64,000 nt of DNA from an uncultured Bacillota bacterium. GTDB taxonomy: Bacteria; Sysuimicrobiota; Sysuimicrobiia; Sysuimicrobiales; Segetimicrobiaceae. The position numbers and the translations under genes are program-made. Location: assembly GCA_963804645.1 (NCBI GenBank), contig CAWDRG010000019.1:1-64000 (forward strand). The letters are read 5' to 3'. Below, one piece after another: positions 4,989 to 57,103 of the stretch. Position 1 is the stretch's first letter. Each line of letters starts with the position of its first letter. The notes under the pieces were generated by a model. The model was not told where the DNA came from and did no database searches. It worked only from the letters and a program-made list of their open reading frames with translations.

Positions 4989-5342
4989 CTACGCCGGGTG
5001 CGCCGAGGCGTCGGCCTTCGCGTGCCTCTTCTGCGCCCAGCGCCGGTACGGGATCCCCAGAAGCACGCTGACGAGCAGGTAGAGCAGGATCGCCGCGCCC
5101 GCGTTCACGTCCGGAAAACTGGCCTTGGCGATGGCGAGCGCGATCCCGGGGTGCCGTGTCGCGGACGCCAGCGCCAGGGTACTCCGCTCGTCGGGCTCCG
5201 GTCCACCGAGCAGGTGGCTGGCCATCAGCGCGAGTGCCGAGACGACCGCGATCGCCAGCAGGCTGCCGTTTCCGACGAGCGCGACCATCTCGGGCCACGA
5301 GGCGACCAGGATCGGCACGAGGGCCAGGAGCAACGCCAAGGT
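4989..5342 (-). pseudogene. Bile acid:Na+ symporter (BASS) family gene, 3' part, interrupted by IS110
   Basis: LGGP...RSTLALASATRHPGIALAIA; rejoins 7159-7663 in frame as ...GQVGTLALLL... Confidence 0.8.
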
Positions 5343-5403
5343 ACATTTCCTAATTCATGTCAACAACCCCTTCGATCAAATTTAGATAGTTCACGTCAGG
5401 CAA

Positions 5404-6879
5404 TCAGTGCGCGATCGTCACCGGTCCGGTTCGATCCATCTTTTGGGACCGAGTAGAATGCGCACAGGAGGAAGTGGGCGCTCTCCGGGAGAGGCGCTCT
5501 GCGCTGCCTCGATGAGCAACCGTCGAACCGTTTCGCTTCCGTCCTCTGCTTGCCCGCCGCGCGGCCCGGATTTCCTCAGGCACCTGGTACTGCGTCAGGA
5601 CGATGGTCCGCGCTTCGCGCACACTGATCTCACGCCGGTCGACATCCTGTAAAACGTAGTCGCGCTGTTCAGTGAGCACTGCGTGAATGCGCGAAGCGAG
5701 ATGGCTCATCACGGCACCGACCGCCTTGTAATGCGGGTTGCCCTTGTGAACCATCTGATCGTAGTAGACCTTGGCTAGTTGCGGGTCCCATTGCCGCGCA
5801 ATCTCGGCGGCTTGATAGAGTGCGAGCTTCACGCGCTTCGGTCCGGCCTTGGTCATCGGGAGGCCCTTCGCGTCGCTATCGGCAGATTGCGACGCATGGG
5901 CCACGACGCCGGTCCAACCTCGGAAAGCCGCTTGACTGTGGAAGCGCTGCGGAGTGCCCACGGCGGCGAGAATCGTAGGCGCGGTGACATCGCCAAGGCC
6001 AGGCATTGTTCTCAGATGGTCTTGGGGTGCGACCTCTTGGTACCGACGGGCGATAGCGGCCTCGAGATCTTTCAGCTCGCGCTGTTCCACATCAATCAGG
6101 CGCAACTCTCGTGCCACTTCGTCTCGGACGTCGTCGAAGAAGGTCTCGGTTAGCAGCCCCACCTCCATGCAGGGACGGTAAAGTCGCGTGAGCTGCTCGC
6201 AGGCCGTGCGTACCCGCGGGACGAGTTCTTCAGCAGGCGCCTTGCGCAAAGGCCTGTCATGCAAGGCTTTCAGCAGCGCGGGTTCGTCCGTGTTGCTCAA
6301 AGTGTCAGGATTTAGCGACACAGTCAGGATCGCGCGAAACGTGGGTTCCCAGGGCTTGCCTGTCACCGCCATCAGTCCGGGCAGGTATCCGCCGACTACC
6401 GCTTGGAGACGGTTCTTTCGTGCAGTGATGCTCTCGACCAGGTGTGCGCGCTGGCGCGTCATACGATCTAATCCCTGAAGCGCCGCCGGAGGGAGGTCCA
6501 CGGCGTAGAGTTTCTCTGGATCCACCAACGGCATCTTGGCCAACGTGAGCGAATCGATGCGATCGGATTTCGCGTCCTGTTTCAGATACTGGCGCAAGGC
6601 GGCCACCTTGCTTGTTTTGATGCGCACGACTTTGACGTCGGGCAGCTGCGCGCGCAGGTACAGGCAGGGAAGAAGCCACGCCAACCCGGTGGGTTCCATG
6701 ACCACCGTGGAAGCGCCGGGCGATGGATCGAGTGTGCGGATCCGCTGCTCGAGCTTCTGCAATCCCACCGAGGACGAGTCAAACGTGAAGTGCTGCGTCA
6801 CTTGGCCCGTTGCGTCGAGAATGGTGCAATCATGAGCACCGTTGATGCTGAGATCGATGCCGATGCTGTGTCCGACCAT
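5404..6879 (-). CDS. IS110 DEDD recombinase/transposase
   Basis: GIDLS, MEPTG, KSDRIDS, TMPGLG, QSAD motifs. Confidence 0.9.
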   Translation of the reverse strand: MVGHSIGIDLSINGAHDCTILDATGQVTQHFTFDSSSVGLQKLEQRIRTLDPSPGASTVVMEPTGLAWLLPCLYLRAQLPDVKVVRIKTSKVAALRQYLKQDAKSDRIDSLTLAKMPLVDPEKLYAVDLPPAALQGLDRMTRQRAHLVESITARKNRLQAVVGGYLPGLMAVTGKPWEPTFRAILTVSLNPDTLSNTDEPALLKALHDRPLRKAPAEELVPRVRTACEQLTRLYRPCMEVGLLTETFFDDVRDEVARELRLIDVEQRELKDLEAAIARRYQEVAPQDHLRTMPGLGDVTAPTILAAVGTPQRFHSQAAFRGWTGVVAHASQSADSDAKGLPMTKAGPKRVKLALYQAAEIARQWDPQLAKVYYDQMVHKGNPHYKAVGAVMSHLASRIHAVLTEQRDYVLQDVDRREISVREARTIVLTQYQVPEEIRAARRASRGRKRNGSTVAHRGSAERLSRRAPTSSCAHSTRSQKMDRTGPVTIAH

Positions 6880-12612: not shown

Positions 12613-12657
12613 TTTGGGAGCAGAAGGTCGTCGGTTCAAGTCCGACCGCCCCGACCA
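12613..12657 (+). repeat. 3' half of tRNA-Pro(TGG), att-site relic, copy 2
   Basis: Direct repeat of 582-626; no tRNA 5' half upstream. Confidence 0.85.
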
Positions 12658-12700
12658 TATCGATCAGGTCCAACCCGGAGACATAGGTGACAGTTCGTAC

Positions 12701-13867
12701 CTAAGACATGGGTAACACTTTCGGGCCGAACGGATTTTCGAGCGGTTCGAGCACGCGTGTCTCCAGATCAAAGTACCCCAAGTCATAATCCATAAAGCTG
12801 ACCAGCCAGATGTCATCATACACTTCTTTGATGCCGACGGCTTGTCCCGCGAAGACTTGGCTGAAGTTGATCTTATGGTTGCCCAGACAGATGCGACCGC
12901 ACTGCGTGACCACGACGGTCTTGTCGTGCAGCGGATAATCGATCTCCGGCAAGCCCGTGTAGGGACGTGGGGAAGGGCGGTAGACTTGCGCCGGACACTG
13001 CATGTCCAGGGCTTCGTGCGGGCGTTCGTTGTTGAAGATGTCGATAAATTTGTCAAACCGGGCCTGCTGCTGCAGGAAATTGGCCGCGGCGGGCTTGGTG
13101 GCTTCTTTCTTCAACGTGAGGTGCATCCGTTCATGACGGCCGTTCTGCTGGGGATGGCCGGGCTGGATGCGTTCGATGCCAATGCCGAGGCGTACCCACC
13201 AGACCGCCAGTCGGCTCAAGTTGAAGAGGGCGTGCGCGGACGCGAACGGGACGCCGTTGTCGCTGCGGATGTTGGCCGGGAGGCCGCGCTCCTTAGACAA
13301 CCGCTCAAACCCTGTAAAGGCATAGGTTTCTTTGGTGGAGGAGAGCGCGTCACAGGCCAGCAGAAACCGGCTGGCGTGGTCGGTGACCGTGAGCGGATAG
13401 CAGTAGCGGTGATTGCCCAGCAGGAACTCGCCTTTGTAATCGGTGCACCATACTTCGTTCGGACGGTGCCCAAGCGACAAGGGGGTGCCCTGCGCCCGAC
13501 GCCGCAGGCGCCCACGACGCTCCACCAGGCCGTGGCGATCCAGCACCGCATGGATCGTGCTCTTCGCGGGGATGGGAATCCCTGCGAACCGGCGCGTCAA
13601 GCGCTCGCGGATCTTCCGCGCCCCCCAGCTGGCGTGTTCGCGCTTCACAGTGAGGATGTAGTTCTCGACTTGAACGGGCAGTTGGTTGGCGTAGCGATAC
13701 GGACGCCGGCTGCGGTCCGTGAGCCCGTGGATGCCGCATTCCTGATACCGATCGAAGAGCTTGTAACCGGTCTTGCGGGAAATCCCAAACTCTCGGCACA
13801 GTTCCGCCATCGACTCACCGGCGAGTCGCCGCGCGACAAACTGCATGCGTTCGTCCATCACCGAACA
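12701..13867 (-). pseudogene. IS481-family DDE transposase, first codons (15244-15266) separated by IS256
   Basis: HTH, WCTDYKG, IRSDNG, PQQNGRHER.H; intact version at 54714-55895. Confidence 0.9.
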
Positions 13868-15243
13868 GAGGTACCCTCAAAGGGTGTGTAAATGCTGAAG
13901 GCGGTGTATCCTCCTGAGAGAGAGACCAACAACCAGGCCTTGTCAGAGGCCCAGGGAGGAAACACACCGCCATGGACAAGCAGAACACGGATCACGACAC
14001 GTCGTCAAGTCCCAGCTGGGACAAGTTGGAGGCCTGGGCTCGGATGCAGATCCAGACGTGGTTCCAGGATCTCCTCGAGGCGGAAGTCACGGAGCTGCTC
14101 GGGCGCCGCAAGGCGCAACGCCGACCGGCCGTGGACGCGCCGGCGGGCTATCGCAACGGCTATGGCAAGCCGCGGCGGCTGACGCTGAGCGCCGGGACGA
14201 TTACGGTGCGACGTCCGCGCACCCGCGGGCTGGAGGACCGGTTCGAGAGTCGGCTCTTGCCGTTGTTCGTCCGCCGGACGCGCGAAGTGAACGCCCTGCT
14301 GCCGGAGTTGTATCTGCATGGCCTGGCCCAGGGGGATTTGGCGCTGGCGCTGCGCGGGCTCCTGGGCGAGGCCGCGCCGCTGTCCGCGAGCACGGTGGCC
14401 CGGCTCACAGAGAAGTGGCAGGGGGAGTACGAGGCGTGGAACCAGCGCCGGGTGGACGAGCTGGAAGTGGTCTACCTCTGGGTCGATGGGGTCTATGTCA
14501 AGGCCGGTCTGGAGAAGGACAAGGCCGCGCTCCTGGTCGCGCTGGCGGGCTTGAGTGATGGCCGCAAGGTGCTCCTCGCCGTCGCGAGCGGGCCCCGGGA
14601 ATCCACGGAGGCCTGGGGCACGTTCCTGCGGGCGCTGCGCGCGCGGGGGCTCTGCGCGCCGAAGCTGGTGATCGGGGATGGCCATCTGGGGATCTGGGGC
14701 GCGCTGCGCGACGTGTATCCGGAGGCGGCGGAGCAGCGGTGTTGGAATCACCGCATCGTCAACGTGCTGGACACGCTCCCCAAGCGCGCGCAACCGCAGG
14801 CCAAGCCCCTCCTGACCGCGATCGCGTACGCGGAGACGCGGGAGGAGGCCGAGCGGCGGAAGGCCGCCTTCCAGCGCTGGGCCACCGGCCGGGGGCACGA
14901 GGACGCCGTGCGCGTACTGGATCGCGACTGGGACCGGTTCGTCACCTTCTACCAGTTCCCCCGGGAGCACTGGTCACATCTGCGGACGTCGAACCCGGTG
15001 GAGTCACCCTTTGCGGCCTTGCGGTTGCGCACGGATGCCGCGAAACGCTTCAAGAAGGTTGCCAACGCGCGCGCGATCATCTGGAAGCTGTTGCTGGTCG
15101 CGGAGCGCCGCTCCGACGGCTCACCGCCCCGGAGCGTGCCACTGAGGTCTACCTAGGCGTGAAGTTCGTGAATGGCGTGAAAGTCACGACCAACGGTCAG
15201 GAGGTCGCCGCCTGAAGATTTACACACCTATTGACGGAACCTC
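13868..15243 (+). mobile_element. IS256-family element
   Basis: 26-bp imperfect IRs gaggtaccctcaaagggtgtgtaaat; 8-bp TSD accgaaca at 13860-13867 and 15244-15251. Confidence 0.92.
13972..15215 (+). CDS. IS256 (Mutator) transposase, apparent frameshift near C-terminus
   Basis: YRNGY, YLWVDGVY, IGDG..G.W.A, QRCWNH, LRTSNPVES; ORF stops at 15156 while the natural tail continues in another frame to 15215. Confidence 0.88.
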
Positions 15244-15330
15244 ACCGAACACTCCCTCCAGGGCATCCGCGTCCCCCCCTTTAGGGGAGGAAGTGTTACC
15301 CATGTGTCCGGTACAACCTGTTACCTATGT

Positions 15331-16141
15331 GTGCAGCCCGTAAAGCCATACACTCAGTCGGTGAGAGTCCGACCCGCGGAGTCGCCCAACTTGCCGCGGT
15401 AGTGTTGTCCGGCGTCTCGAAGGAGGTGACTCGCGAGACGGAAGCCCGGACGTACAAGTCTCGGCGGCCCGGCAGAGATATAAAGGCCGCGGTCGGTGGC
15501 CCAGGAGACGAGCGATGGATGGGGCCGCAACATGAAGTGAACACTGCAGCGTCGTTATTCAGGCCCACTCAGAGCTCCGGTAACGGAGTGCTCAGCGCCA
15601 CAGTGGGAATGAGGGTGCCAAGTTTCTACATAGGGGACGAAGGCCAGTGTGGTTGCGGAAGAAGCTGGGCGTGTGCACGCAACCAGCCCTCCGGCGTAGG
15701 GGTGGCGGCAACATCCAAAGGGTGGATGGTCAAAGCGGGGAAGGGCTCTCACCCGTGAGGCCAGTGATATAACCGACTTCACTCGGGAAGTTCACTGGTG
15801 GGGGAGAGTCTGGCGCATGAGGCCGTAGGAGCGATGATCGCTCCGATAACAAGGAGCGGGAGCAAAGGGCCTCTGGGAGCAGGCCAGCGTTGGAGAAGGA
15901 GAGGGTGCGGGTGCTGATAACGCGCTCGGGCTACCGCCAAGATCCGGACCGACGCTGTAGGCTGCAGCAAACCAATCGCTCCCCAGGTACAGGCTGGGAA
16001 GGATCGGGAACGCTGCAACTGAGCGCGTGCTCTTCCAGCCGGATTGGGGAAAACCCGCTATCCGGTTGATAGGGGGCGGGGTGGAACCGTGGTCAGGCTC
16101 CTTAACGGTAACCTGACCGGCGCGCCACCCTGCTACCCGAC
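15331..16141 (+). ncRNA. ORF-less group II intron, copy 1
   Basis: Domain V cagccggat...gaaa...atccggttg (16036-16068) with AGC triad; domain VI with bulged A16135 seven nt from the 3' AC; EBS1 acatag (15628-15633) complementary to the 5' exon end ctatgt; excision restores the IS IR. Confidence 0.88.
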
Positions 16142-16216
16142 CTCAGGCTGGAGGTCAAGGGGTTACGATGATCGCCGATTCTGCGAGCCGCATTTTCGTG
16201 AACACGCCTAGACCTG

Positions 16217-17086
16217 CTAGAGGTTCCGAACCTCGGGGATCACGTCCCTGGCGAGCCGCTCAACCGGCGCGATCGTCTCGACCTCGGCGACATTGAAAAT
16301 CATGTGCTGAATCCCGAGCGCGGCGCCGCGCCGGCAGCGAGCGACGATCTCCGCACTGGTTGTGGTGGGCAGGATCGAGCCCAGTGTCGTTTTCTCGATC
16401 GCCTCGTACGGACGCCCGATGCGTTCGCAGTGGCGCTTGAGCACGTCCAATTTGTCACCGAGCGCGTCCCAGCCGATCCGATCGAACAGGTTACACGCGT
16501 CGCCGTACTGCGCAACAAGGCGAAGCGTCTTCCGTTCGCCGAGGCCGCCGATCAGAATCGGCGGGTGCGGGGTCGTCACCGGCTGGGGACGGCACAGCGT
16601 TTCGGCAAGCTGATAGTGTCTGCCGTGGTACGGACCGTTGTTCGCTGACCACATTTGCTCGACGATCTGGAGCGCTTCCTCCAGCCGCTCGAACCGCTCC
16701 CGCACGGGCGGGAACGGCACGCCGAGCCCCTTCGCCTCGCGTTCGAACCACGCCGCTCCGATGCCCAGGTACGCGCGCCCCCCGGATACCACGTCGAGGG
16801 TCGTCACGGTCTTGGCCAGGATCCCGGGGGCGCGGTAAACGACCCCAGTCACGAGCGCCCCCAGTTTCACCCTGCGGGTGAGCCCCGCGAAGTAGCCGAG
16901 GGTCGCATACGCTTCCAGCATCTCGTGGTCCGGCGGGCCGACATATTGGATCTGGAAGAAGTGGTCCATGACCCATAGGCTGTCGAACCCGCCGGCGTCC
17001 GCGGCTTGCACGATCTCCCGGAGCGCATCGCGCAGAGGGGGGGAGCCGGGAAACGTAAAGTTCGGGATCTGCAGCCCGATGCGCAC
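16217..17086 (-). CDS. LLM-class F420-dependent oxidoreductase
   Basis: GFDSLWVMDHFFQI, TTLDVVSGGRAYLGIGAAW, PPILIGG.GE.KTL. Confidence 0.9.
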   Translation of the reverse strand: MRIGLQIPNFTFPGSPPLRDALREIVQAADAGGFDSLWVMDHFFQIQYVGPPDHEMLEAYATLGYFAGLTRRVKLGALVTGVVYRAPGILAKTVTTLDVVSGGRAYLGIGAAWFEREAKGLGVPFPPVRERFERLEEALQIVEQMWSANNGPYHGRHYQLAETLCRPQPVTTPHPPILIGGLGERKTLRLVAQYGDACNLFDRIGWDALGDKLDVLKRHCERIGRPYEAIEKTTLGSILPTTTSAEIVARCRRGAALGIQHMIFNVAEVETIAPVERLARDVIPEVRNL

Positions 17087-52448: not shown

Positions 52449-54554
52449 TTTTCCAACGCGCCGAGCGGCTGCGGCCCGACTTCTTCCGCGTCCTTTACGA
52501 CGAGTATGTCGCGCACCTGGTGCCGGAGGCCCGCACGACCTACGCCGCCGCCGTGGCGGGGGTGCGCGAGCGCTTCTCCGAGGTCTGGATCCTGGACGGC
52601 ACGCGCCTGGATGCGGTGGCCCATCGGCTCAAGCTCACCTGGGATGTCCGCTCGCCGTTGTTGCCGGGGTGCCTGCTGGTGTGCTACGACCTGTTCCGCG
52701 GCTTCCCCCGGCGCCTCTCGTTCTGCGCCGATGCCGGCCGGAGCGAACTGCAACACGCGCTCGAGCAGCTCCCCACCATTCCCCAAGAGACGCTGCTCAT
52801 TGCGGATCGACTGTTTGCCTCGGTCAAGCTGGTGGCGGCACTCACGCACGGGAAGGGATGGCTCCTCTGCCGCCGGAATCGTCGGCTCACCCTGCGCCAT
52901 CAGCGCTGGCTGCGCCGCGGCCAGTTCAAGGGCGGCACGCTGATGGAGCGCCTCGTCCTCGTCGGGTCGGGGCAAGGCACCCCGCCCCAGCTGATGCGGC
53001 AGATCCGCTATACCCAACATCGACTGACCATTGATCTCTTGACGTCGGTGCTGGACCCTCGGCGCCTCCCCGCAAAAGACGCGCTGGCATGTTACCGATT
53101 GCGCTGGCAAGTGGAACGGCTGTTTTCGGATCTCAAGGGCGTGCTGGATCTCCATCACTTCTACCTCGCCAGCCCGCGCGGGGTGGCCCAACAAGTCTAT
53201 GTCGCGGCCATGGTGTATGCCGCGATGCGCGTGGCGCAAGCCCGCATTGCCGGGGAGCATGACCTGACGCCGGAGGAGTTGTCGCCCACCAAGCTCTTCC
53301 CGCGCCTTGCCCGGGCCTCGCTCACCTTCGTGCTCGGGGACCTGCATTTTGAGGCGACGCAACAGGTGAATCCCCGCGTGCGTTTAATCAAGCCGGATTG
53401 GTCGGAGCTCCCTCCCATGCAGGTCGCGCTGCCGGATCTCCTCGTCGAACCTCGTCGCGGCAAACGCCGCAAGCGTCGGTTCTGCGCGAGCCGGCACCGG
53501 TGGAAATCGTTCGCGCATGTGCGCGGCGCACGTAAGTTCGAATTATGTTAGCGGCGATGACTCTAAGGCGCCGAAGCGCCAACCAGCGCGGCGGAGTTTG
53601 CATTCCCGGACTCCGCTCTTCGGTCCGGCGGTCACCCGCGTCCGCCATTATCCTACCGCGCATGCGCCTCCCGTGCCAAGCGAGGGACTTGACAATTTCA
53701 TCCGTGGCCTGCGGCGACGAGGCGGGGATCCACTTGATGCCCAGTTGGTGGAGCGCCCGGCCGACTTGCGTCGCGGGTACGGCGCCGGTGAGCTGCTCCG
53801 GCAGCGGCAGGCGCGCCTTGGAATCGGCCTGGAATAGGCCTGCGCGGTCGGTGTAGACGGCGGCGGGCACGCCATACCGTTGAATCAGCCGGCGGATGAG
53901 GAGGAAGTAGCCATGGGCATCTTCCTCAGGGCGAAACACCGTGGCGAGGACGGTGCCGGTCGCATCGTCGATCGCGGCATGGAGGACGAGACGAGGGCCG
54001 CGGTCTTCGAGCCACGGATGGTGGCTGCCGTCCATCTGGACGAGGAGGCCGGCCTGGGGCATGCGCTCGCGACGGCGACGATGCCGGGGCGGCCGCCGGG
54101 TGCGGGGACTACTGATCCCGGCCTTGCGGAGCAGGCGGCGGACGGTGGGGCGCGAGAGCTGGATGGCTTCGCGTTAGTCCAGGAGCTCGGTGAAGTGGGA
54201 GTCATTGCTACCGGCATAGCGGCCTTGGGCCAGTGCCAGGACCCGGGCGCGGATCTTCTCGGCGGTCCGACGCGGTGACGCACGTCCCCGATTGCCATGG
54301 GCGAGGGCGGCCGGGTCGTGCTTGCGCACGCGGGCGAGCAAGCGCCGGACATGCCGGATGGAATGGCCGAGCAGGCGTGCGGCGTCAGGCACCGGCAGTC
54401 GGCCCTCGAGGATCTGTGTGATCACTTGTCCCCGTTGCTGCTCTTTGCTGCTCAACGTCACCATCTCCCTGGTCATGGTGCCAGGGTGACAGAATCACTG
54501 ACCAGTTAGGGGGTGACCAAATCATTGAACAATTACAGCATCGACCTCCGGGCC

Positions 54555-54583
54555 TTGTCTTGCTTGGCGTTTCGCGTTACCAT
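54555..54583 (+). promoter_or_regulatory. Putative sigma70 promoter of tRNA-Arg
   Basis: TTGTCT-N17-TACCAT ending 11 nt before the tRNA. Confidence 0.6.
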
Positions 54584-54594
54584 GACCACGGCGC

Positions 54595-54670
54595 GCGCCC
54601 GTAGCTCAGAGGAGAGAGCGGCTGCCTTCTAAGCAGCGGGTCGGGGGTTCGAATCCCTCCGGGCGCGCCA
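54595..54670 (+). tRNA. tRNA-Arg(TCT)
   Basis: 76-nt cloverleaf: acceptor gcgcccg/cgggcgc, anticodon arm gctgc-ctTCTaa-gcagc, GTTCGAA T-loop, encoded CCA. Confidence 0.97.
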
Positions 54671-54713
54671 AGCTCAGATGGTCCAACCCGGAGACATAGG
54701 TGACAGTTCGTAC

Positions 54714-55895
54714 CTAAGACATGGGTAACACTTTCGGGCCGAACGGATTTTCGAGCGGTTCGAGCACGCGTGTCTCCAGATCAAAGTACCCCAAGTCATC
54801 ATCCATAAAGCTGACCAGCCAGATGTCATCATACACTTCTTTGATGCCGACGGCTTGTCCCACGAAGACTTGGCTGAAGTTGATCTTATGGTTGCCTAGA
54901 CAGATGCGACCGCACTGCGTGACCACGACGGTCTTGTCGTGGAGCGGATAATCGATCTCCGGCAAGCCCGTGTAGGGACGTGGGGAAGGGCGGTAGACTT
55001 GCGCCGGACACTGCATGTCCAGGGCTTCGTGCGGGCGTTCGTTGTTGAAGGTGTCGATAAATTTGTCAAACCGGGCCTGCTGCTGCAGGAGATTGGCCGC
55101 GGCGGGCTTGGTGGCTTCTTTCTTCAACGTGAGGTGCATCCGTTCATGACGGCCGTTCTGCTGGGGATGGCCGGGCTGGATGCGTTCGATGCCAATGCCG
55201 AGGCGTACCCACCAGACCGCCAGTCGGCTCAAGTTGAAGAGGGCGTGCGCGGACGCGAACGGGACGCCGTTGTCGCTGCGGATGTTGGCCGGGAGGCCGC
55301 GCTCCTTAGACAACCGCTCAAACCCTGTAAAGGCATAGGGTTCTTTGGTGGAGGAGAGCGCGTCACAGGCCAGCAGAAACCGGCTGGCGTGGTCGGTGAC
55401 CGTGAGCGGATAGCAGTAGCGGTGATTGCCCAGCAGGAACTCGCCTTTGTAATCGGTGCACCATACTTCGTTCGGACGGTGCCCAAGCGACAAGGGGGTG
55501 CCCTGCGCCCGACGCCGCAGGCGCCCACGACGCTCCACCAGGCCGTGGCGATCCAGCACCGCATGGATCGTGCTCTTCGCGGGGATGGGAATCCCTGCGA
55601 ACCGGCGCGTCAAGCGCTCGCGGATCTTCCGCGCCCCCCAGCTGGCGTGTTCGCGCTTCACAGTGAGGATGTAGTTCTCGACTTGAACGGGCAGTTGGTT
55701 GGCGTAGCGATACGGACGCCGGCTGCGGTCCGTGAGCCCGTGGATGCCGCATTCCTGATACCGATCGAAGAGCTTGTAACCGGTCTTGCGGGAAATCCCA
55801 AACTCTCGGCACAGTTCCGCCATCGACTCACCGGCGAGTCGCCGCGCGACAAACTGCATGCGTTCGTCCATCACCGAACACTCCCTCCAGGGCAT
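54714..55895 (-). CDS. IS481-family DDE transposase
   Basis: MPWRECSVMDER, HTH, rve core (WCTDYKG, SDNG, NGRHER). Confidence 0.93.
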   Translation of the reverse strand: MPWRECSVMDERMQFVARRLAGESMAELCREFGISRKTGYKLFDRYQECGIHGLTDRSRRPYRYANQLPVQVENYILTVKREHASWGARKIRERLTRRFAGIPIPAKSTIHAVLDRHGLVERRGRLRRRAQGTPLSLGHRPNEVWCTDYKGEFLLGNHRYCYPLTVTDHASRFLLACDALSSTKEPYAFTGFERLSKERGLPANIRSDNGVPFASAHALFNLSRLAVWWVRLGIGIERIQPGHPQQNGRHERMHLTLKKEATKPAAANLLQQQARFDKFIDTFNNERPHEALDMQCPAQVYRPSPRPYTGLPEIDYPLHDKTVVVTQCGRICLGNHKINFSQVFVGQAVGIKEVYDDIWLVSFMDDDLGYFDLETRVLEPLENPFGPKVLPMS

Positions 55896-55959
55896 CCGCG
55901 TCCCCCCCTTTAGGGGAGGAAGTGTTACCCATGTGTCCGGTACAACCTGTTACCTATGT

Positions 55960-56770
55960 GTGCAGCCCGTAAAGCCATACACTCAGTCGGTGAGAGTCCG
56001 ACCCGCGGAGTCGCCCAACTTGCCGCGGTAGTGTTGTCCGGCGTCTCGAAGGAGGTGACTCGCGAGACGGAAGCCCGGACGTACAAGTCTCGGCGGCCCG
56101 GCAGAGATATAAAGGCCGCGGTCGGTGGCCCAGGAGACGAGCGATGGATGGGGCCGCAACATGAAGTGAACACTGCAGCGTCGTTATTCAGGCCCACTCA
56201 GAGCTCCGGGAACGGAGTGCTCAGCGCCACAGTGGGAATGAGGGTGCCAAGTTTCTACATAGGGGACGAAGGCCAGTGTGGTTGCGGAAGAAGCTGGGCG
56301 TGTGCACGCAACCAGCCCTCCGGCGTAGGGGTGGCGGCAACATCCAAAGGGTGGATGGTCAAAGCGGGGAAGGGCTCTCACCCGTGAGGCCAGTGATATA
56401 ACCGACTTCACTCGGGAAGTTCACTGGTGGGGGAGAGTCTGGCGCATGAGGCCGTAGGAGCGATGATCGCTCCGATAACAAGGAGCGGGAGCAAAGGGCC
56501 TCTGGGAGCAGGCCAGCGTTGGAGAAGGAGAGGGTGCGGGTGCTGATAACGCGCTCGGGCTACCGCCAAGATCCGGACCGACGCTGTAGGCTGCAGCAAA
56601 CCAATCGCTCCCCAGGTACAGGCTGGGAAGGATCGGGAACGCTGCAACTGAGCGCGTGCTCTTCCAGCCGGATTGGGGAAAACCCGCTATCCGGATGATA
56701 GGGGGCGGGGTGGAACCGTGGTCAGGCTCCTTAACGGTAACCTGACCGGCGCGCCACCCTGCTACCCGAC
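55960..56770 (+). ncRNA. ORF-less group II intron, copy 2
   Basis: Same sequence and same insertion point as 15331-16141 (offset 40629); differences seen at 56210 and 56695. Confidence 0.88.
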
Positions 56771-56972
56771 CTCAGGTTGGAGGGATATAAACAAGGCGTA
56801 CCGCGCGGTCAGCACCCTTCGGAGGGCGCAAAAAAGCAGCGGGCGACGCGGCCTTTGGCTGATCGCATGCAGTTCGCCCAAGTGCATGTCGTTCTCGTGT
56901 GGTTCGCTAACGTCGGTCTGCGTGGTCGGTGCCGGCACCATACTGAACGCCTCTGCCAGTTTGCCCGCATTG

Positions 56973-57097
56973 ATTATGCTAAGCGGGTAGCATATTGTCA
57001 AGAATCAATGCTAGGCGGGTAGCACACTCAGTGGTGGAAAGAGGTCCACTGGGTTCACTGACAGTGGTTGACACTGATGCTAGGCGGGTAGTACGAT
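56973..57097. promoter_or_regulatory. Divergent promoters with three 18-bp operator-like palindromes
   Basis: ATGCTA-N6-TAGYAY at 56976, 57008 and 57077; minus-strand TTGACA-N17-CATAAT; plus-strand TTGACA-N18-TACGAT. Confidence 0.7.
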
Positions 57098-57103
57098 CCT
57101 GCC

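Follow-up and report, generated by a model that had tools for sequence, protein, structure and literature searches.

What is the 811-nt insert that interrupts one terminal inverted repeat of an IS481-like insertion sequence (IS) in the genome of an uncultured Bacillota bacterium, and how did it come to be there? The insert lies on contig CAWDRG010000019.1 of assembly GCA_963804645.1, within the 64,000-nt stretch of DNA analysed here (the window), where it occupies positions 15331-16141 of the + strand. It is a group II intron without an open reading frame (ORF), and its boundaries are exact. We consider it likely that this intron is structurally complete but has lost its reverse transcriptase (RT)/maturase gene, and that it persists as a non-autonomous retroelement whose retrohoming depends on a helper.

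A group II intron without an ORF

Based on a search with Rfam covariance models, positions 15355-15535 (+) match RF02003 (group-II-D1D4-4) over the full model (positions 1-138 of 138) with 58.2 bits and an E value of 3.4e-10, the gathering score being 49. An identical match, again of 58.2 bits, lies at 55984-56164 (+), inside a second copy of the intron, and a scan of the whole window at Rfam gathering thresholds returned three matches, namely one tRNA and these two. The boundaries were provided by relatives. The IS body was searched against 60 related genomes, of which 19 hold full or partial homologues, and seven copies from six genomes reach the relevant end. All seven are free of the intron at that right end, which reads ...cctgttacctatgt/ctcagg..., or, written with both flanks, ...gtacaacctgttacctatgt/ctcaggccgctca... 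or close variants of it, with nothing in between (the slash marks the insertion point). These empty sites make the boundaries at 15331 and 16141 exact. The insert starts with GTGCAG and finishes with GAC, 13 nt from the tip of the IS. Compared with the group II boundary consensus GUGYG...AY, the 5' end deviates by an A for G at position 5, and the 3' AC fits AY.

These results bear out several claims of an earlier reading of the letters alone (the original prediction), which had proposed an ORF-less group II intron with these boundaries and GUGCAG as its 5' end, the latter now fixed by the empty sites. It had also held that taking out the insert brings back the match to the other inverted repeat of the IS, and the alignment of the two ends agrees. 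The covariance-model check that it proposed gave a divided answer, RF02003 scoring over its cut-off in both window copies and RF00029 (Intron_gpII) giving no match.

A consensus fold was derived from 14 members of the intron family (13 distinct) and mapped onto window coordinates (Table 1). It has six domains and 211 pairs, with 96.9% of paired cells filled as against 87.2% in shuffled alignments. Pairs in which both partners have changed number 97 of 211, compared with 47 in shuffles; none of 500 shuffles reached 97, and sliding the partners by one to three columns left 14-23. The distal stem of domain IV (15960-16020) co-varies, as does the upper stem of domain V, a domain that was placed by alignment with relatives and with RT-encoding introns. 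Its unusual 5-nt loop is common to the intron and the RT-encoding introns of the genome, and the bulged A of domain VI, at -7 (16135), is invariant in all 14 aligned members. Domain V, a domain VI with a bulged A and a short domain IV, all of them described from the letters before, were thus seen again in the alignment and the fold. The RT-maturase ORF that the mobile autonomous type carries in domain IV is absent from this 159-nt domain, and its purine-rich tract bears a weak, only suggestive likeness to the Shine-Dalgarno/start region of RT-encoding introns. No RT is encoded in the insert, and none of the 12 loci of the genome that match PF00078 is on the window's contig, in line with the earlier statement that the window holds no RT.

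Recognition of the 5' exon follows the pattern expected of the predicted loop. The exon-binding sequence EBS1 (ACATAG) forms six pairs with the last six exon bases, the intron-binding sequence IBS1 (CTATGT, 15325-15330), as originally proposed, and this pairing co-varies with the exon across the family: a paralogue termed B has TTAGAG/CTCTAA, and a copy termed C has GCAGAA/TTCTGC. With pairs anchored at the last exon base, at least seven are contiguous in 10 of 12 members, and the mean run is 6.58 for cognate combinations compared with 3.56 for non-cognate ones (12 members, 10 different exon ends). A candidate EBS2 sits in a single-stranded segment (15555-15563) that in most members is complementary to the exon at about -14 to -9; the best complementary run against exon positions -18 to -7 averages 5.58 in cognate and 3.89 in non-cognate combinations of the same 12 members. 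In the left-hand repeat, which faces the other strand, IBS1 and the +1 base are unchanged, but ACTG replaces CCTG, so that the first IBS2 base differs. No intron was found in any left-hand repeat (C19:12667, C19:54680, C11:131905, C11:18047 and C19:295204, given as contig and position).

Movement of the intron and the targets of its family

The 811-nt intron (type A) is present in the genome in five copies with 99.75-100% identity by blastn, together with the 75%-identical paralogue B (C4:158167-158962 of the same genome, G000; L039:4168-4963) and one fragment. A genome of the same genus, G006, contains the 73%-identical copy C (locus L087). All five genome copies of A, and both near-identical copies found in metagenomes, occupy the same place in the same inverted repeat, the one on the upstream side of the transposase gene, and run antisense to that gene. 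The idea of a ribozyme aimed at this transposon end is therefore upheld by all of these copies.

The original prediction went further and treated IS and intron as one composite. According to that explanation, the two would spread together by DNA transposition, in the manner of an IStron, with the repeat still working despite an 811-nt insert. Three nearly identical IS copies (C19:12667, C19:54680 and C11:131905) are indeed all intron-bearing, each with its own flank and, for the window copies, its own duplication (TCA and GAT), and the genome offers no empty right-hand repeat. However, the copy at C11:11634-12444 is a 99.9%-identical intron within an IS variant that shares 91% identity with the window copies in its body and 94% in its 51-nt repeat, with an IS110-family gene and a 2.8-kb serine-recombinase element between the transposase remnant and the repeat. 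Another, at C15:243070-243880, is found in a remnant of the repeat, which directly adjoins one end of an unrelated repeat element. Both have the tip ctcaggccgctca, shared with the two metagenome copies and the empty sites of relatives, whereas the three window-type IS copies have ctcaggctggagg. Only four of 811 positions vary among the five introns, and these single-nucleotide differences are shared in a pattern that cuts across IS types. The same IS is intron-free in six relatives, and the targets of the intron family are quite different from one another, including even domain V of another intron. Furthermore, the opposite orientation of intron and transposase gene precludes splicing of the intron from the transposase mRNA, and it would be of no use to the IS as a spliced insert. 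We therefore regard the composite as unlikely, and this part of the original prediction was not supported. Because the intron is nearly identical in an IS variant of only 91% identity, sequence comparison indicates that it moved on its own, at least for some copies, and that it is an independent retroelement nested in an IS rather than part of a fused, IStron-like unit.

The family reaches beyond these genomes. A 27-nt pattern conserved in A, B and C, which are 73-75% identical to one another, retrieved 24 metagenome contigs, all 24 of which match the A/B/C profile; the 19 full-length copies measure 796-833 nt. A scan of species-representative genomes with an 18-mer was less productive: it returned 47 loci, of which the G006 copy at L087 alone matched the profile, the other 46 being chance matches. 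One locus, L111, in which the match stops at profile position 540, had been considered as a possible RT-encoding member; it is cut by an IS256-type transposase instead.

Nine target types were distinguished, of which four are at or next to IS ends, in keeping with the original expectation that relatives would often be found there. The site of A is the IS481-like repeat, and that of B is about 7 nt in from the end of an IS110-family element, of which homologous empty ends are found at C15:369713 and C15:464447. The type represented by L094 and L103 is about 32 nt from the tip of a repeat adjoining a Mutator/IS256-family transposase, and L102 is directly upstream of a DDE_5 transposase gene. C is located between two ordinary genes, and three of the nine types are without a resolved site. 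In two metagenome contigs one member resides in the domain V loop of another (L093:105-1710 and L112:151-1760). Removal of GUGCGG...CCCGAC from this twintron restores the domain V loop of the host, which indicates that the same boundary rule applies to the family. In L106, a second intron copy begins 1 nt past the end of the first.

The ribozyme core varies in a manner that is itself informative. In an alignment of the window intron with L006, L031 and metagenome loci L092-L112, the two ends co-vary, with G...CCCGAC in nine members, U (UUGCAG)...CCCGGU in five, and no exception among the 14. The U-start type forms two separate, well-supported clades, which corresponds to at least two switches on the tree; to our knowledge, group II introns very seldom begin with U. 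In eight of the 14 members the domain V triad reads AAC rather than AGC, with an extra base on the opposite strand, and two more keep AGC but face AA (alignment columns 744-777). Such AAC forms have moved, since the twintron's inner intron is one of them and another type recurs with different flanks across several contigs. Taken together, it is conceivable, though we put it forward tentatively, that the family is a long-lived, exclusively gene-less group II lineage, "SINE-like" (after short interspersed nuclear elements), that is still moving and retargeting and tolerates core changes thought to be nearly forbidden. The targets of such a lineage would possibly comprise IS481-, IS110- and IS256-type ends, DDE_5-adjacent and intergenic sites, and domain V of another member.

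Helper proteins, mechanism and alternative explanations

A helper-dependent intron needs a source of protein. Published accounts state that bacterial ORF-less introns nearly always share their genome with related introns, whose proteins possibly act in trans (PMC4424553). RF02003 gives 17 matches over its cut-off in the genome, six in the ORF-less family and 11 elsewhere, and those examined among the 11 carry RT-maturase ORFs; G006, the sole other genome with a family member, also has RT-type RF02003 introns, and the model found none in 14 control genomes. The cognate RT-encoding intron that the original prediction had suggested searching for was thus found only in part: RT-encoding introns of RF02003 are present, but none of those seen belongs to the ORF-less family itself. 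The nearest, at about C15:386305, C15:457135 and C5:195001, match the family profile at positions 3-538 (domains I-III) with E values of about 1e-12 (nhmmer). They appear to start with GAGCG, a boundary that was placed by a short EBS1/exon complementarity. Their 440-aa protein contains RVT_1 and GIIM only, without an endonuclease domain (two ORFs, one locus checked); its best match in the PDB is the GsI-IIC RT (8.6e-56), a match that assigns no intron class. Two RT-encoding RF02003 introns occur as a tandem or nested pair at C15:384640-388650 (L041) and C5:192650-196650 (L043), with a further domain V-like element (RF00029, 30.8 bits) separating the ORF from the terminal domain V.

From these data we infer helper use, priming at the fork, the route of transcription, splicing and the effect on the IS. 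The RNA would be transcribed from the + strand, possibly by read-through from the tRNA gene that ends 9 nt before the IS. It would find CCTG-N4-CTATGT/C in the DNA of the transposase-proximal repeat through its EBS2 and EBS1 loops and reverse splice into the site 13 nt from the IS tip. DNA copying could then be performed in trans by an endonuclease-less RT-maturase from an RT-encoding intron of the same Rfam family, with priming from the nascent lagging strand at a replication fork. The intron occupies all complete right-hand repeats of the IS481-like element in the genome. Since it interrupts the repeat and has no means of excision at the DNA level, transposition of the copies that carry it is probably severely impaired.

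All six family copies of the genome have the G-rich strand as the sense strand of the intron. RmInt1 and other introns without an endonuclease reportedly prefer the lagging-strand template, and the same point is made in the RmInt2 paper (PMC4615759). The observed bias fits insertion into that template. A scan of 54400-57100 for promoters and terminators gave no + strand candidate in the interval from the tRNA to the intron, a result that neither shows nor excludes a promoter. At the level of RNA, contigs from four metatranscriptome runs (three studies) cover parts of the intron, and one of them crosses the 5' junction unspliced; in both cases DNA carry-over is possible. Loose ends at 55959 that continue with CTCGGGCCGCTCAC were considered as proof of splicing and rejected, the contigs being about 90% identical to the repeat; by sequence they are best taken as intron-free IS variants of other organisms.

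A number of observations weigh against a functional, helper-dependent retroelement. RF00029, which covers domains V and VI, found no match in window 15200-16300 even at an E value of 10 (the seven other listed matches in that scan, to microRNAs and the like, are far under their cut-offs), and it matched none of the ORF-less copies in the genome search. The intron begins with GUGCA, not GUGYG, its EBS2 gives only four pairs (CAGG/CCTG), and two of the five copies have A, not U, opposite the triad G (window 56695 and C11:11634-12444). Similarity to the candidate helper introns is no more than distant (E 1e-12, domains I-III), and no RT-encoding family member was seen in the 24 metagenome loci or the genomes searched, with a pattern that had itself been derived from ORF-less members. 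The contigs of the four RNA libraries include no spliced joint across the intron. The strand bias is confounded, because the tRNA genes that the IS targets also set its orientation, and related copies do not count as independent cases. Finally, no right-hand repeat in the genome is empty and all three near-identical IS copies are intron-bearing; in those three, the intron may have been carried along by transposition of the IS.

Some of these points would also be expected if the introns were inactive relics, multiplied by recombination or gene conversion between IS copies and not by present-day retromobility. The G-A that replaces G-U at the catalytic triad in two of five copies, the absence of a cognate RT nearby and the lack of a spliced product in the RNA-library contigs are all consistent with this. 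On the other hand, the five copies vary at only 4 of 811 positions while their IS flanks differ by up to 9%, insertion is precise at one phosphodiester bond in different IS variants, and selection for function is evident from the compensatory changes throughout the family and from the repeated switches of EBS1 and EBS2 to new targets. An origin as relics is accordingly quite improbable in our judgement.

Mobility without any group II maturase, by self-splicing and reverse splicing with copying by an unrelated RT (the genome has a 419-aa example in three copies) or by repair, would agree with a family that appears ORF-less throughout (no RT in 24 of 24 metagenome loci) and with the precedent of C.te.I1, described as a bacterial ORF-less intron that self-splices without a related protein in its genome (PMC4424553). 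Both genomes known to hold the family nevertheless carry several RT-encoding introns of the same Rfam family. We also know of no precedent for retromobility without an intron-type RT, and find this last explanation very hard to credit.

Host elements and relation to known systems

The transposase of IS copy 1 scores just under the NF033577 cut-off, as the best of five IS families, and the orthologous transposase of copy 2 has rve, rve_3, HTH and LZ_Tnp_IS481 domains. The 53-nt inverted repeats of copy 1 (15278-15330 and 12681-12733) are 77% complementary. An IS256-family element, whose transposase matches NF033543 with 275 bits and Transposase_mut with 190 bits, is nested in this copy at a point 8 nt upstream of the IS481-like transposase start (Table 1).

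The IS481-like element looks like a site-specific IS that targets tRNA flanks, judged from its positions. It lies exactly 9 nt past the 3' end of tRNA-Arg genes (tct, tcg and ccg) in G000 (two copies), G004, G015 and G002, and 10 nt from tRNA-Arg in G010, always with the same IS end facing the tRNA (window 54595-54679 and 12613-12666; L037, L117, L118, L119 and L142). Copy 1 of the window is situated 9 nt past a 45-nt 3' fragment of a tRNA. This fragment belongs to a pair of 45-nt direct repeats (582-626 and 12613-12657, 98% identical) that resemble the part of a tRNA from anticodon stem to CCA; ARAGORN and Rfam found no full tRNA at either position. The repeats bracket about 12 kb and may be remnants of the attachment sites of an integrated element.

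Two further mobile elements were noted. Window positions 5338-5925 hold a related piece, 86% identical, of the IS110-family element targeted by B. The 2.8-kb element mentioned above, which encodes a large serine recombinase and a DUF5372 protein, occurs at C11:12985-15805 and C15:239299-242115 (99.6% identical), and its C11 copy breaks an IS110-family transposase gene.

Table 1. Positions of the intron, its structural parts and its host elements in the window
Feature	Coordinates	Strand	Remarks
ORF-less group II intron, copy 1	15331..16141	+	811 nt, 5' GUGCAG...GAC 3'; RF02003, empty sites, five copies
5' exon: inner part of inverted repeat, transposase-start side	15278..15330	+	IBS1 15325-15330, IBS2 15317-15320
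Domain I	15337..15739	+	consensus fold
Candidate EBS2, CAGG	15560..15563	+	would pair with exon CCTG 15317-15320
EBS1 hairpin, GTTTC-TACATAG-GGGAC	15622..15638	+	EBS1 ACATAG 15628-15633, in 7-nt loop
Domain II	15740..15814	+	consensus fold; helices 20-22, 14 pairs with double changes
Domain III	15816..15876	+	consensus fold
Domain IV stub	15877..16035	+	159 nt, no RT ORF; purine-rich GGAGAAGGAGAGGGTG tract
Domain V	16036..16068	+	AGC triad, G-U wobble with U16066, CU bulge (2 nt), GAAAA 5-nt loop
Extended domain VI	16072..16138	+	about 67 nt; bulged branch-site A at 16135
3' exon: terminal 13 nt of the same inverted repeat	16142..16154	+	ctcaggctggagg
IS481-like element, copy 1	12667..16154	-	bears intron and IS256-family insertion; 3-bp direct repeats TCA 12664-12666, 16155-16157
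Transposase of IS copy 1, 385 aa	12701..13858	-	NF033577 (IS481 family) 215.3 bits, cut-off 224
IS256-family element nested in IS copy 1	13868..15241	+	9-10 bp duplication (t)caccgaaca; transposase 13972-15156
tRNA-Arg(tct)	54595..54670	+	IS copy 2 begins 9 nt past 3' end; intron on same strand as tRNA
IS481-like element, copy 2	54680..56783	-	3-bp direct repeats GAT 54677-54679, 56784-56786; transposase 54714-55871 (-)
Intron, copy 2	55960..56770	+	two differences from copy 1; A at 56695 replaces triad U

The original prediction regarded an intron programmed for transposon ends as new. Homing into IS inverted repeats has, however, been published for RmInt2 of Sinorhizobium meliloti GR4, with ISRm17 as the host element (Martinez-Rodriguez et al. 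2014, PMC4615759; PMC5894124), and its authors proposed that the intron restrains or controls its host IS. As described there, RmInt2 resembles the present intron in a target inside the terminal inverted repeats of an IS, in several copies per genome and in the tolerance of a four-pair EBS2/IBS2 interaction. The two differ in that RmInt2 encodes its own protein, whereas the present intron has no ORF, and in that RmInt2 is reported in left and right repeats, whereas here the transposase-proximal repeat alone is used, in five of five copies. The IS family of the host is also different, being IS481-like here.

ORF-less introns of Thermosynechococcus elongatus have been described as spliced and mobilised in trans by the protein of a related intron (Mohr et al. 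2010, PMC2882425; PMC4424553). The likeness, so far as those descriptions go, is that gene-less introns have multiplied beside RT-encoding relatives in the same genome. The T. elongatus copies are said to be close derivatives of RT-encoding ones. Here, in contrast, the nearest RT introns are distant, the ORF-less family is diverse (73-75%) and every member seen is ORF-less. IStrons, in which a group I intron is fused to IS200/IS605-type transposase genes (PMC4227781), share with the present case a ribozyme physically joined with an insertion sequence. By that published description, an IStron is a single transposing unit that is spliced from host transcripts, and the intron reported here is a self-moving group II intron, antisense to the transposase. 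The ribozyme, the rve/IS481-like transposase and the independent mobility of the intron all set it apart from IStrons. More generally, group II introns have been noted as frequent in mobile elements and transposases (PMC7306698). On the accounts cited here, introns that home into IS repeats and ORF-less bacterial introns with helpers in trans are both known already; what is new is the IS481-like host, the restriction to one of the two repeats, and the joint occurrence of ORF loss and homing into the repeat.

For annotation, IS copies of this type are interrupted and probably immobilised elements. RF00029 misses the whole family, which surveys based on domain V motifs or RT ORFs would overlook. 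If the family is truly a gene-less lineage, ORF-less bacterial introns would be less rare than reviews state. In addition, family members differ naturally in their first base, 3' end and triad, which makes them a ready source of covariation data on the ribozyme core. The locus would provide a clean natural case, with exact boundaries and available empty sites, of a double parasite: a retroelement that lands in a DNA transposon and takes its enzyme from other introns.

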